NCBI GenBank assembly: GCA_963719515.1
Contig: CAVRCJ010000006.1
Location: 384,001 to 448,000, forward strand
Direction of reading: 5' to 3'
DNA length: 64,000 bases
DNA from: an uncultured cyanobacterium
GTDB taxonomy: Bacteria; Cyanobacteriota; Cyanobacteriia; CAKZMO01
The translations under genes were made by a program, and so were the position numbers. The number at the start of each line of letters is the position of its first letter. Position 1 is the first letter of the stretch. Positions 42,308 to 48,160 of this stretch are shown one piece after another. The notes beneath the pieces are model-generated. The model ran no database searches. It was given only the letters and a program-made list of their open reading frames with translations, and was not told the DNA's origin.

Positions 42308-42922
42308 TTGATTGCCCAAATTTGGAGACCTGCTGTGCGAGAGATTTTAATTAGCGTCGCTGTGATGATTGGCTGTGCCGCCGTGCTGGTTGTTGCTCAA
42401 CTGACGGGCTCATCGGCGATCGCGGCCCCGAGTGAAGTCCCTCGTCCGGCGTCAGCGGCATCCCCCCTAGAGCAGCGGATGGGCCCCTCTAGCGCATCCC
42501 AAACCGAACCCGAAATCATTGCCCAAGCCCCGACCCTATTTGAATCTAACCCCATGGCCTCAGAGGACTCAGCGCTTGACACAGTCACTACGGCTTCGGG
42601 CCTACAGTATATTGACGAAGTAGAAGGGACTGGCGCGCAGCCCCAGGCTGGCCAGACCGTAAGCGTTCACTATACCGGCACCCTAGAAGACGGCACCAAA
42701 TTCGACAGCTCTCGCGATCGCAATCGGCCTTTTTCGTTCCGCTTGGGCGCTGGACGGGTGATTCGCGGCTGGGATGAGGGCATTGCCACAATGCGCGTTG
42801 GCGGACAGCGCAAGCTAATCATCCCCCCCGATTTAGGCTACGGCGCGAGAGGGGCAGGTGGGGTCATTCCCCCCAACGCGACGCTCATCTTTGACGTTGA
42901 GCTGCTGCGCATTGGCGCCTAG
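42308..42922 (+). CDS. FKBP-type peptidyl-prolyl isomerase
   Basis: [40 protein letters not shown]. Start may be GTG 42335. Confidence 0.95.
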
Positions 42923-42950
42923 GATTTAGCGAGGCCAAAGGGCTTTGAGG

Positions 42951-42995
42951 GGTAGATGAGTTCTACAGGGGTCACCCCGCAGAAACTTGTCTACC
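42951..42995. terminator. stem-loop between the convergent FKBP gene and the (pre-insertion) end of kaiC
   Basis: GGTAGATGAGTTCT..GGGG / CCCC..AGAAACTTGTCTACC imperfect inverted repeat; no clear U-tract. Confidence 0.5.
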
Positions 42996-43074
42996 AAAGG
43001 CCGCCGCAGTGCTCCGCCTATACCGCGTAGCGGCTAGGGGGTGGTGAAGCGGCGCGTGAGCCGTAGGTGAGCAA

Positions 43075-43486
43075 TCAATCGATTTCGGCTTGCTGCTGAA
43101 TGTACTGCTTCAAAGCTGATATGGGAGCGCTGCCGCAGGAAATAAGGCAATACGACCTGCTCCAAAAAACCGGCTTACCCCGATAGACACGGTTGAGGTG
43201 TCCCGTCAAACTCTTTCCTGATTAAGCGGCTCGACACGGTTTTGAGATTGTTCACCAGCTTGGACGGCTGAACCTTGGGATTGACCGATATCAGCAAATG
43301 GATATGGTCCGGCTCACCATTGCACTCAATCAGCTCACATTCCCATTTGCCGAGGGTGGCGCGGAATATCTCGGCCAGCCGGTCTTGCATCGCAGCAGTA
43401 ATACATTTTCTGCGGTCCTCTGTGCAGACGACCAAATGAAACTGGATATTGTAAGCGCAGTGCCTAAGCTTGTTTAGGGTCTGCAT
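43075..43486 (-). pseudogene. tnpA: IS200-type Y1 transposase TnpA, frameshifted
   Basis: YNIQFHLV, DHIH (HUH), LKTVSSR. Frameshift near 43200-43208 puts FWSRSY...LKQYIQQQ (catalytic Tyr helix) in another frame ending at 43075. Confidence 0.88.
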
Positions 43487-44066
43487 CGGTGTGACGACTA
43501 AGCTACAATACATCAATGCTAACACTGACCCGTGAGTACAAGCTGAAGCCGACCAAACGACAGGCGATTGAGATGGAACACATCTTGTCGGTCTGCCGTA
43601 GCGTCTGGAATTATGCATTGCGAGAGCGCAAGGACTGGATTGCCTCGCGCAAAAGCTCAGTCAATACCTGCTCTTTGTGGGGCGAGTACATCGTGGCTGC
43701 TGATGCTCCGTTTCCTGGCTTTGCTGAGCAATGCAAATCGCTGACGCAAGCCAAGACGTCGAACGCAGCGCTCAAGTCGGTCAATGCCCAGGTACTTCAG
43801 CAGGTGCTCAAGACGCTAGACAAGGCGTTTCGAGACATGAAGGAGCGCGGCTTTGGGTTCCCCCGGTTCAAAAAGCGAATGCACTCCTTCGTGTTTCCGT
43901 AGCTTGGCAAGCACCTTCTGGGCAATGGGTCTGTGAAGCCCCTGCATTGGCGACGCGAGGATTCGCCAGTCCCGGCCCTATCCCGATGGCTTCAGGGTTA
44001 AGCAGGCGCGGGTTGTGAAACGTCCATCAGGGTTCTATCTGATGCTGACGTTTCAGGCTGATTTAG

Positions 44067-44458
44067 CTACTAGACAGGAAGCCCCGCGCTCTACCCGTCA
44101 GGGTGAGCGTCGGGATGAGAGTCGCGCTAGCCGAAGTGCGCCCGCAAAATGATGCACAGCGGATAGTGCGCTCAGCGCTGAGGCTAGCAGTTGGTATGAT
44201 AGAGATAGCAAGGTGATACACCCCGCAAAGAGTGTGACGGGCCCGTAGGCGAAAGCTGCAAGTCACCCGTTCCTCAGTTTGCAAATGTATCTGCGACACA
44301 TAGTGCGTATCCTCCCTCGCGGAGATGAAAATTCAAAACTCTGCCGTGGGGCATCAGGCGGAGTATAAACCTATCTCAGGATATGTCTCGGCAATAGCTG
44401 GGAGTCACTGAGGAAGCCCGCGCTGTACAGCTTGCTGTCAGCGTCGGGAGGATGTCAC
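44067..44458 (+). mobile_element. 392-bp non-autonomous IS200/IS605-type mini-element (PATE-like) nested in tnpB
   Basis: Both ends carry CCCGCGCT...AGCGTCGGG hairpins (44083-44114, 44417-44448). Guides AAGC and GAAG fit target TTAG and end TCAC. Removing it restores tnpB ...FQADLDIPQP... Confidence 0.88.
44338..44458 (+). ncRNA. putative omegaRNA-like scaffold in the mini-element
   Basis: Stems ACTCTGCC/GGCGGAGT and TCTCAG/CTGGGA plus the right-end hairpin, where TnpB omegaRNAs normally lie. Boundaries approximate. Confidence 0.45.
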
Positions 44459-45154
44459 ACATTCCTCAACCCCCTGTAGCAGGTCATATTGTTGGTGTTG
44501 ATGTTGGCCTGGAGTATTTTCTTTCCACCTCTGACGGCCTTCAGATTAAGCGCCCTCGATTCTTTGTGGATATGCAGCGCAAGCTGAAATTGCTGCAACG
44601 CAGATTGAAGCGAAAGAAGCGAGGGTCAGCAAACTGGATTAAGGCTCAGCAAAAGGTGGCGCGGCTGCACGAGTGCATCAGGAATACCCGCAAGGACTTC
44701 CACTTCAAAGTCGCACATCAGCTTTGCCATGGAGCCGATGTGATTGCAGTAGAAGACCTCAACCTAGTTGGACTGTCGCGGGGTATCCTCGGTAAGCACA
44801 TGCGCGATGCAGGCCACGGGCAGTTTCTCAATCAGATATTGCCGTGGATTGCTTGGAAGCGAGGCAAGGCGTATCTGAAGGTTGATGCTCGCGGCACTTC
44901 TCAGGAGTGCCCTGATTGTGGGGACAAAATAGTGAAGCAGCTATCTGACCGCTGGCATAGCTGCTCTTGTGGGGCGTCAATGCCTAGAGACGTTGCCAGC
45001 GGCCAGGTGATTCGACATAGGGCCGTCGGGCGGACGGTTCTTGAAAATGCCTGTGGAGACGGTCTAACGGGGGCAGTAGCTTAATGCTGTTGTCTAGCCA
45101 AGAGTAAAAGAAACAGGAATCTCCGACTGTACCCACAGGGTCAGGGGGAGTGCG

Positions 45155-46732
45155 TCAATCTTCCTGTTCACCTTTTTCCTGAAAGCCCTGCACGATACGG
45201 GAAAGCTCATTACGCTCATTGACCGCTATCCGGTTAGGCGAGCCGCTGATAATCCGCTCGTATTCTCGGAAAGACTTCTTAATCTGAGGTCCGTTCTCGT
45301 CAATCATGTACTCTCGGATGCCCTTGTCATGCCAAGAGCCGCGCATTTTGAAAACGTTGATGGCCCGGGACATTTCCCCTCGAATCTCGACGTACTGAAG
45401 CATCAATATGGTGTCAGTGATGGTCGAGATATGTGAGTCGGTGATTGAGTGAGACCCCATGAATTGGTCGGTGGTGTTCGTGAAGAACCCTGTAATCTCC
45501 TCTTGTTTAGCGAACCCTGTTACTCCAATCACAAACTGACGGAAGGTATTGTTGCTGACGCCGCGGGCTAGGGCGGAGAGCGAGTCGATAGCAATGCGGG
45601 ACGGCTTAAAGTTGGCAATTTCAGACTTGATAATCTGTAGGTGGTCTTCAAGCCCAGCAGACTCGGGATAAGCGCATAGAATGCGCAGCAGACCCCGCTG
45701 CTCCAACTCCTCAAAATCGATTCCCCAGGAATAGGCGTTACGGGAGAGCTGCGCCCGCGACTCTTCGTAAGCAAAAAGGATGGCACGGCTGTTGTTTTCG
45801 CAGGCGTTCTGCAGAAACTTGCTCACTAGCATCGTCTTGCCGGTGCCGGTAGCTCCGGTAGCCAGGATGATTGAATCTTTAAAGAAACCACCGCCGCACA
45901 TCTCGTCTAGCGTCTCAACGCCTGAGGACACGCGTACGTTTGACGAGCGCTGGGTGAGGCGCATCGCTCCGAGCGGAAAGATATTGATCCCCTGATTGGT
46001 AATCGTAAAGGGATACTCTCCCTTCATGTGGGTGGTGCCTCGCAGCTTGAGGATTTCGATTGTTCGTCTACGGCGTTCTCCCTCAAGGGCGTTGCGAACG
46101 ATAACAACGTTGTCAGAGACGAATTCTTCAACGCCGTATCGTGCTACGCTGCCATATTCTTCGGTTCGCTCTGCTGTCATCACGGTGGTAACGCCCACTC
46201 GCTTTAATCGCGATGCCAGTCGGAATAGCTCGCGTCGCACAATTGAGGTGGCGTCGTACTGCTGAAAAAGGGCGGTGACAGAGTCAACCGAGACGCGAGA
46301 CGCGCTGTACTTTCGAATGGCGTATTGAGTGCGCTCGATGATTCCTGACAGGTCAAAGTTACCGACGACTTCTTGACCTTCTGGATCGGGCGAGGCGTCT
46401 AAGATGAACAGCTTTCCGTCGTCAATGAGCTGTTGAAGATCCCAGCCGAAGCTATGGGCGTTCTCAATGATGTCGGAGGGGGACTCTTCAAAAGTAATAA
46501 AGAGTCCCGGCTCGTCGAAATGAATAATGCCGTTATATAAAAAATGAATAGCAAACAGCGTTTTTCCGGTACCCGAGGTGCCGCTGACCAGCGTCGTTCT
46601 GCCCGCCGGGATACCCCCATGACTGATATCGTCGAAGCCCTCAATCATGGTCCGGAGTTTTTGAACGCCCTCTTCCCCCCTCGACGTGTCAAAGGGGTCA
46701 GTTTCGCGAGCGTTGTAGGAGTTTGGCTGCAT
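45155..46732 (-). CDS. kaiC: circadian clock kinase/ATPase KaiC
   Basis: Two P-loops (GTSGTGKT, GATGTGKT) and the DSHISTIT phosphorylation site. Confidence 0.99.
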   Translation of the reverse strand: MQPNSYNARETDPFDTSRGEEGVQKLRTMIEGFDDISHGGIPAGRTTLVSGTSGTGKTLFAIHFLYNGIIHFDEPGLFITFEESPSDIIENAHSFGWDLQQLIDDGKLFILDASPDPEGQEVVGNFDLSGIIERTQYAIRKYSASRVSVDSVTALFQQYDATSIVRRELFRLASRLKRVGVTTVMTAERTEEYGSVARYGVEEFVSDNVVIVRNALEGERRRRTIEILKLRGTTHMKGEYPFTITNQGINIFPLGAMRLTQRSSNVRVSSGVETLDEMCGGGFFKDSIILATGATGTGKTMLVSKFLQNACENNSRAILFAYEESRAQLSRNAYSWGIDFEELEQRGLLRILCAYPESAGLEDHLQIIKSEIANFKPSRIAIDSLSALARGVSNNTFRQFVIGVTGFAKQEEITGFFTNTTDQFMGSHSITDSHISTITDTILMLQYVEIRGEMSRAINVFKMRGSWHDKGIREYMIDENGPQIKKSFREYERIISGSPNRIAVNERNELSRIVQGFQEKGEQED

Positions 46733-46832
46733 GGGCTATGCAATCTAAGTTAATACAGGGTCGTAACACTCTCAATCCTAGCCGGTTATGCGTCACTAGG
46801 GACAAGGCTACAGTACCGAAGAGCCGACGCTA

Positions 46833-47153
46833 CTAACTGTCGTCGCTCAGCTCACCATTGGACAGGGTATCGTAGAGCAAGTCTAGTCCAATCAGCACCT
46901 TCTCTCGATCAGACAAGTCCCCAATGATTTTACGAACGGGCGGCGGCAGAATTTTGGAGAGCGTCGGCGTTGCTAGGATCTTGTCCTCTTCAGCGAGCTG
47001 GGGATTCTTCATCACATCAATTACCTTAAGCGCGTAGACGCCATGAAACTCTTGCTCAAGGATGCTGTTGAGCGTTCTCAGGGCCCTCAGGGAGTTTGGA
47101 GTGTTGCCTGCAACGTATAGTTTCAAGACGTAGGTTTTTTGGGGAGGAGTCAT
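46833..47153 (-). CDS. kaiB: circadian clock protein KaiB
   Basis: [14 protein letters not shown]...KILATPTL. Confidence 0.99.
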
Positions 47154-47272
47154 AGGAGAGAGTCCGTACCTCTAGAGTGGACTGCTCAAAGCAGCATGCT
47201 AGAGACCGTAAATAAGGCCAAATAGGGCAAGGAAGTGGGCTTGTGACCAGGAAGGGAGCGATTTCCCGACGG

Positions 47273-48160
47273 CTAGGCCTGCCGAGGAATCGATCGCCTA
47301 TACATTTCGCATAGGTTAGAGAGAGTATCGATCAAGGTCAATCGGTAGTCTAGAAGAATTTCCTCGCTGCGGCCCTCGATTTTCAGCTGCTTGGAAAATG
47401 CATCCATAAGGTCCATGTGGATCTCAACGACTTGAACAATGGGCACGTCAGCAAAAAAGGCTGAGTTGACATAATTATCAATCTTTTGGTTGAGCAACGG
47501 ATCGTCTGTAAAGTAATTGAGAATAATTTCCTGGTAGCTTCGCTTCAGCTGAGCGAGCTGCCGCTGTTTTTCCTCTGAAGGTAGATAGCGCAGAAATCGC
47601 TCTGGATCTCGCTTATAGTAAACGCTCAAATACCCTAGCCTCTCTTTCAGCTTTTCGGCCAGTCGGTCTTGCTGACAGGCGAGCAGCGCATGCTCTTGCT
47701 TGTCGATATCATTGTGTGAAGGCTGCTCAGTTTCGCCTGATAAGGGGATTTTGAGAAACTGGTTGATCACGCGATCGATGTGGGACGGCAGCTGGTTGAG
47801 CTGCTGGAACTCCAGCCAATAGATCGCGGTGTAATATCCAAATTTATCTGGGCTGTCGGCCTGCTCGGCGATCGCCTCATCTTCGAGACGTCTGTCCCTA
47901 ATTAAAATTGTAGGCAACAAAATCGAGCGCGATCGCAGTTCGCCAAGCGCTGACGGAAGCTTGCCCTGAGCATCTAGAATTAGACAGTCAATACCATTGC
48001 GGCAGGCTTCAATCGCCTCAATGAAATCGCTGTGGGTCAGAAATATTTCGAGCTGATACGCGTCGCCGTCTAAACTTGACTTTAGTGAAGGCGCTACCGC
48101 ATCAGTCGCTAAGTAGGCATAGACAACTATCTTTGGCTTTGATTCCTGTTTGGAGGCCAT
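47273..48160 (-). CDS. kaiA: circadian clock protein KaiA
   Basis: Pseudo-receiver N-terminus; KLKERLGYLSVYYKR...LCEMYRRSIPR. Confidence 0.98.
   Translation of the reverse strand: MASKQESKPKIVVYAYLATDAVAPSLKSSLDGDAYQLEIFLTHSDFIEAIEACRNGIDCLILDAQGKLPSALGELRSRSILLPTILIRDRRLEDEAIAEQADSPDKFGYYTAIYWLEFQQLNQLPSHIDRVINQFLKIPLSGETEQPSHNDIDKQEHALLACQQDRLAEKLKERLGYLSVYYKRDPERFLRYLPSEEKQRQLAQLKRSYQEIILNYFTDDPLLNQKIDNYVNSAFFADVPIVQVVEIHMDLMDAFSKQLKIEGRSEEILLDYRLTLIDTLSNLCEMYRRSIPRQA

Follow-up and report, generated by a model that had tools for sequence, protein, structure and literature searches.

The analyzed window comprised 64,000 nucleotides of the source genome (G000:C6:384001-448000), and all positions given for this locus refer to it. 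An IS605 element occupied positions 42995–45158 of the plus strand; its ends were read from the sequence, and related contigs began at 42989–42993 and ended at 45159–45160 relative to it. The element carried divergent tnpA and tnpB genes and was dead. The tnpA gene (43075–43486, minus strand), matching the Pfam family Y1_Tnp, was frameshifted near 43205, where related contigs were one base shorter. The tnpB gene, on the plus strand, was split into a 5′ part (43516–44066), with a stop at 43900–43902 and a frameshift near 43939, and a 3′ part (44459–45084) matching Pfam OrfB_IS605 and TNB as well as NCBIfam guided_TnpB. Only one blastn match above 70% over the length of this host element was found in the source genome; thus, it is single-copy. 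A gene that we take to be FKBP-like (42308–42922) lay upstream of the element, and genes at 45155–48160, immediately after it, were presumed to be kaiC-, kaiB-, and kaiA-like; by these neighbors, the source is taken to be a cyanobacterium.

The space between the two parts of tnpB was occupied by a gene-less IS605 mini-element of 392 bp (44067–44458, plus strand), referred to below as family A. Sequence reading placed it directly after TTAG, with TCAC as its last bases and without target duplication; the target site TTTAG (44062–44066, plus strand) is the TnpA target and the putative TAM for a helper TnpB. Contigs in three public runs (X1–X3) contained a host element with about 92% similarity to the present one; they joined position 44066 to 44459 and omitted exactly the 392 bases of the mini-element, so both of its ends are independently fixed. 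Neither of the two host frameshifts was present in these uninterrupted contigs. Exact removal of the mini-element, proposed in the initial annotation to restore the tnpB frame, does so locally (QADL-D-IPQ), but the joined host gene stays broken by the stop and the frameshift. The mini copy is probably younger than the host element: it has 13 identical counterparts, whereas three lesions have accumulated in the host.

Subterminal hairpins with DNA guides were found at both ends of the mini-element. On the left (44067–44114, plus strand), the guide AAGC (44079–44082) was followed by a predicted hairpin at 44083–44114; on the right (44413–44458, plus strand), the guide GAAG (44413–44416) was followed by a hairpin at 44417–44448 and by TCAC (44455–44458). 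We take AAGC/TTAG and GAAG/TCAC to be guide/cleavage-site pairs, following the pairing rule from IS608 work. A second folded hairpin (44126–44188, plus strand), the counterparts of which in other mini-elements were variable, lay between the left end and the promoter. The sole ORF of at least 50 aa almost wholly inside the element encoded 78 aa on the minus strand and had no Pfam match; coding traces were limited to vestiges of helper frames at either end. The initial annotation had described an element with twin terminal hairpins and no credible ORF, inserted after TTAG without duplication and derived from another IS605 family than its host. Each of these points held: the insertion mode was repeated in all 53 genomic copies and matched the empty site in X1–X3, and the end codes read as claimed, with AGTG/CTAC and GAAT/TCAA in the host instead of AAGC/TTAG and GAAG/TCAC.

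The source genome contained 53 full-length copies of the mini-element, 96–100% alike by blastn, and 14 of them, including the nested one, were identical. All were preceded by TTAG, 47 of the 53 by TTTAG (the form of 8363 of the 24466 TTAG sites in the genome), and all terminated in TCAC; their right flanks were random. The initial annotation had called for an autonomous element with the same ends, and helper elements sharing these ends were indeed present. There were 19 such long elements, not counting several more that were truncated at contig ends: 16 encoded TnpB only (mostly 1483 bp), and three, of about 1.8 kb, carried both tnpB and open frames of tnpA length. Of the 19 helpers, 17 had a tnpB whose frame was open and included all three RuvC motifs, and the one helper tnpA/tnpB pair scored was above the cut-off for NCBIfam guided_TnpB and transpos_IS200. 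One helper TnpB was encoded at C10:312217-313413 of the source genome. The first 68 nt of the mini-element were about 95% identical to the left ends of helper elements, and its last 85 nt were 85–88% alike. In a 1483-bp helper (L209:39-330, minus strand), the place expected for tnpA was taken by a divergent ORF of only some 60 aa.

Relatives of the mini-element were found in two of the four genomes of the same genus: G011 (93%) and G010 (86%, a copy cut by a contig end). No close helper TnpB was found in the draft assemblies of G011 and G010 (best identities of 32% and 40%, respectively), although drafts often lose repeats. When the type-A interior was compared at the DNA level across the phylum, 6 of 401 genomes gave matches, the source genome included; the other five were matches of 22–48 bases and were rejected as homologs, one of them (L032) proving on inspection to contain no mini-element. 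The plasmid collection searched gave no match. A motif scan of genome contigs returned 94 stretches; of the 80 inspected, most were due to chance and three were cyanobacterial mini-elements or parts of them.

The 3′ third of the mini-element (44338–44458, plus strand) resembled the omegaRNA scaffold of TnpB, with stem 1 at 44338–44364, stem 2 at 44375–44412, and the right-end hairpin. The three hairpins were the same as at the 3′ end of the helpers (fold z of −3.75 for the mini-element and −3.33 for the helper), and a trace of the C-terminal frame of tnpB was retained. In an alignment of four ends, both sides had changed in 9 of 35 pairs, five of these in stem 1; judging from this alignment, stem 1 is preserved through compensatory changes. 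Retention of a guide scaffold in a non-autonomous element, as the initial annotation had supposed, is thus upheld by the fold and the compensatory changes, its function as an omegaRNA being predicted. The idea that the remnant of tnpB encodes a small peptide was rejected, the frame being shifted in G010. By eye, stem 1 of type A might pair with the terminal bases as a pseudoknot, an arrangement that did not suggest itself in type B.

An extended −10 box, TG-n-TATGAT, was identified at 44192–44200 (plus strand), with a predicted start near 44207; the hexamer read TATGAT in the source genome, TATACT in G011, and TATAAT in G010. Within 36 nt, such a box was found in 15 of 17 mini-elements, compared with a frequency of 10.8% in random windows; for this comparison, the windows were placed after the sequences had been viewed, and the 17 mini-elements are not independent. 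A strict −35/−10 scan gave no plus-strand promoter in the mini-element. On the minus strand, a weak promoter-like site facing the leader was observed within the scaffold (44362–44389), one being found against 0.3 expected.

A conserved leader RNA of about 130 nt (44207–44337, plus strand), with a rod-like stem at 44215–44291, was predicted between the −10 box and the scaffold; it had no counterpart in the helper elements. Folded alone, the family-A leader was no better than shuffled sequences (z −0.29). Across three genomes it formed a rod of 23 pairs, with 67 of 67 cells paired, and G011 had in addition a double insertion that was paired; the one two-sided change among these three sequences was reached as well in 173 of 500 shuffles. 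Rfam gave no matches at E values up to 5 within 42900–45300, and sub-threshold hairpin matches only in nine other mini-element loci. A known RNA (HEARO, ribozymes, introns, and others) was rejected accordingly, since no curated model matched.

The order of promoter, leader, and scaffold was repeated in unrelated mini-element families. Grouped by their end motifs, other gene-less mini-elements of the same layout in the source genome fell into families of 16, 6, and 2, and the models of two further leader types, D and B, gave 21 and 6 matches in that genome, respectively. Among 151 genomes, the source included, matches to types D and B were found in five and two, and the matches in genomes outside model building (G030, G445, G470, and G453) were gene-less mini-elements. 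Within the class, 14 of 401 genomes matched a type-B query, and 18 of its 22 loci outside the source genome were without tnpA or tnpB. In the type-D leader, two-sided changes were counted in 13 of 18 pairs around conserved internal loops (10 sequences, in an alignment fitted to the model) and in 7 of 18 pairs of an unfitted alignment of six sequences; type B had 6 of 26, and all of these counts are inflated by related sequences. The type-B model matched the leader of the nested element (E 0.0025 in 10 kb), and the type-D model did not. Judged by sequence, the leader types are common to gene-less IS605 mini-elements across cyanobacterial families.

Some similarity between leaders and tnpA coding DNA was also seen. 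A weak leader-model match lay inside the host tnpA (E 0.035), and a 14-base exact and a looser 33-base match of the type-D leader were observed at 43249–43276 of that gene (minus strand), in the stretch coding for PKVQPSKLVN. These matches tentatively hint at an origin of leaders from tnpA DNA. Against shuffles in crude two-base blocks, 3 of 24 pairwise comparisons, all in sense orientation, and 2 of 28 profile tests reached p ≤ 0.02. For the type-A leader against 34 tnpA genes, p was 0.02–0.07 pairwise and 0.21–0.36 by profile with the same crude shuffling, and nhmmer found nothing between the leaders and these 34 genes.

Additional gene-less mini-elements were noted in passing. Three further IS605 families in the source genome (C10:526000-526520, L205; C10:332100-332590, L206; and C1:7080-7580, L207), of about 450, 420, and 445 bp, had different leaders and a scaffold resembling that of the second tnpB family. 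Of these three, the 420-bp family (L206) was preceded by TTAA, matching its DNA guide AAGT. The end code of the family B mini-elements was likewise AAGT/TTAA. Mini-elements with other interiors were seen in G417 (L219, with a right end TCAA of the host type), G008 (L008), and G500 (L217). Mini-elements of different families adjoined at some sites of the source genome (C3:734219-735159 and C11:33952-35160).

According to general TnpB biology, the predicted guide of the nested copy is the 16 nt beyond its right end (44459–44474, plus strand), that is, host tnpB sequence; the guide differs among the 53 copies. A TnpB acting in trans would plausibly be aimed by this guide at the empty junction, because the guide scaffold was kept and helpers with the same ends exist. 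To this extent the claim of the initial annotation that the guide targets the host tnpB stands; but it is a mere consequence of the landing site, because any IS605 guide targets its own insertion site. In the source genome, 491 of the 24466 TTAG sites were inside tnpA/tnpB loci, and 1 of the 53 mini-elements was located there, which matches the 1.06 expected by chance, so nesting is not special. Mini-elements avoided ORFs: 9 of the 53 were in ORFs, compared with 238 of 400 random TTTAG sites. This avoidance fits the survival of mini-elements at harmless sites, a dead tnpB being one. The nested position reflects an ordinary insertion of a PATE-like element that carries only a guide.

We failed to find in the source genome any site of TTAG plus the nested copy's guide with three or fewer mismatches, and none of 72 guides tested genome-wide had a site with fewer than three. 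At the homologous site of 17 genomic paralogs and of two relatives (L133 and L134), TTAG was absent in all cases, and each had at least 6 mismatches to the 16-nt guide. An exact search of metagenome contigs for the empty junction gave 53 matches, none in a tnpA or tnpB, and these were rejected as chance.

With hairpin ends, a fixed target, no gene, and a tnpA-bearing relative, the mini-element is a non-autonomous (PATE-like) IS200/IS605 element. In the accessible text of Meers et al. 2023 (10.1101/2023.03.14.532601), which describes cut-and-copy retention, PATEs are likewise gene-less, with the IS605 hairpin ends of tnpA/tnpB elements, and often encode omegaRNAs that are used with TnpB in trans and take their guide from the flank, the omegaRNA features being predicted here. 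In contrast to PATEs as described in that text (10.1101/2023.03.14.532601), the interior of the mini-element is not a simple helper deletion: it includes a −10 box of its own, a conserved leader of about 130 nt, and a compensatorily diverged scaffold. We found no such leader in the text of that paper, the extended figures of which may show PATE interiors. The standalone omegaRNAs of Altae-Tran et al. 2023 (PMC10691335), stated in its accessible part to act in trans with a compatible effector and to have an unknown role, are also mobilized RNA-only loci, trans action being predicted for ours; unlike them, the present elements occur as 53 nearly identical copies alongside clear helpers in a single genome, and several distinct leader types exist. 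Restorative homing is covered in the accessible part of a 2026 review (PMC13565253). In the literature covered, mostly freely accessible main texts, we found no description of a promoter-plus-leader class of mini-elements or of nested guides attacking rival families. What is new relative to known PATE-like elements is the conserved leader.

Taken together, our data make it highly probable that the mini-element is a protein-less, non-autonomous IS605 element living off both proteins of its helper family. TnpA of the few tnpA-plus-tnpB copies would excise the mini-element, the ends of which are observed, and reinsert it after (T)TTAG; mobility in trans is implied by the 14 identical copies at different sites. 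The element's own −10 box would drive an RNA of about 250 nt, composed of leader and scaffold, into the right flank. Helper TnpB is presumed to be compatible with the scaffold of the mini-element, although only the last 85 nt are alike (85–88%). As in published IS605 work, TnpB would load this RNA, probably trimming its 5′ end, and cut the vacated site of the copy on the sister chromosome, whereupon recombination would restore the copy. As in known IS605 TnpB guide systems, the guide would point to the empty site of the element itself, with the TnpA target serving as TAM, but here both the nuclease and the transposase would be borrowed. Most likely, therefore, the guide marks the vacated site of the mini-element itself, as with any IS605 element. 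The nested copy would owe its place in tnpB simply to the tolerance of insertions in a dead gene, and its guide would therefore specify, of all sequences in the cell, that broken gene alone. The case is slightly weakened by the lack of a close helper TnpB in the drafts of G010 and G011. No mini-element transcript was seen in the contigs of X1–X3, the strict promoter scan was negative on the plus strand, and this explanation leaves the conservation of the leader unaccounted for.

The leader could also be a separate module, acting in protein binding, in processing, or as a decoy, with mini-elements competing with helpers for TnpB; we consider this a tentative possibility. It can be reconciled with dependence on helpers, and any conflict would then be between mini-element and helper, not between mini-element and host. 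The conservation of leader types across families, with their two-sided changes (13 of 18 pairs, or 7 of 18 unfitted, in type D and 6 of 26 in type B), the match of the type-B model to the nested leader at E 0.0025 in 10 kb, the finding of gene-less mini-elements in G030, G445, G470, and G453, and the number of type-A mini-elements (53, against 17 intact helper tnpB genes) argue for it. Against it, no partner or activity has been identified for the leader, and the covariation counts are inflated by relatedness. Moreover, the leader may simply belong to a long scaffold or serve as a stabilizing 5′ end: in the accessible text of Nety et al. (PMC10278001), TnpB processes the 5′ end of omegaRNA, and processed lengths are 79–466 nt. 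The broader proposal, a cyanobacterial RNA-only IS605 class in which tnpB was replaced by a promoter and a structured RNA domain with its own job, fused to the scaffold, is for now doubtful. If true, the leader domain could win TnpB from helpers or recruit another protein, and the real conflict would be that of mini-element and helper.

Improbable, in our view, is an inert, MITE-like passenger spread by TnpA only, which makes no working guide and keeps its scaffold and −10 box as leftovers. The lack of mini-element RNA in X1–X3 is in line with it, although these RNA runs, being contigs from other strains in which 44196–44357 was uncovered and coming from libraries that can hold DNA, say nothing on expression; so are the helper-poor G010 and G011 drafts and the shuffle-like fold of the leader alone (z −0.29). 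However, leftovers do not explain why stem 1 was maintained by compensatory changes, why the −10 box varies solely at free positions across three genomes, or why the order of promoter, leader, and scaffold recurs in unrelated families. The pairing of all 67 leader cells in three genomes also speaks against inertness, though with one two-sided change (equaled in 173 of 500 shuffles).

The suggestion of the initial annotation, that TnpB in trans is directed by the mini-element at host tnpB copies lacking the insertion, so that a rival IS605 family is suppressed or serves as a homing target, is very improbable: a helper TnpB and a guide scaffold are indeed present, and an incoming copy like the uninterrupted, frameshift-free ones of X1–X3 (about 92% alike) could be hit if TAM and seed were kept, but the host is single-copy and dead, no genomic target has three or fewer mismatches, TTAG is at the site in 0 of 17 paralogs and 0 of 2 relatives (all with at least 6 of 16 mismatches), mini-elements are not enriched in transposon genes, where nesting is at chance level, and the empty junction, with 53 matches in metagenome contigs, had 0 inside a tnpB. 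Within the source genome this suppression is refuted, the absence of further host tnpB copies being the very outcome that the initial annotation had named as contrary to it.

The nested position of the mini-element is thus ordinary and says nothing on conflict between transposon families. Family A, with its 53 copies and known helpers, is a natural test of TnpB borrowing by RNA-only elements. Its scaffold, freed from the tnpB reading frame, shows which parts of the omegaRNA matter. If the leader has a function of its own, it would be a new RNA module in OMEGA systems and could inform guide design.
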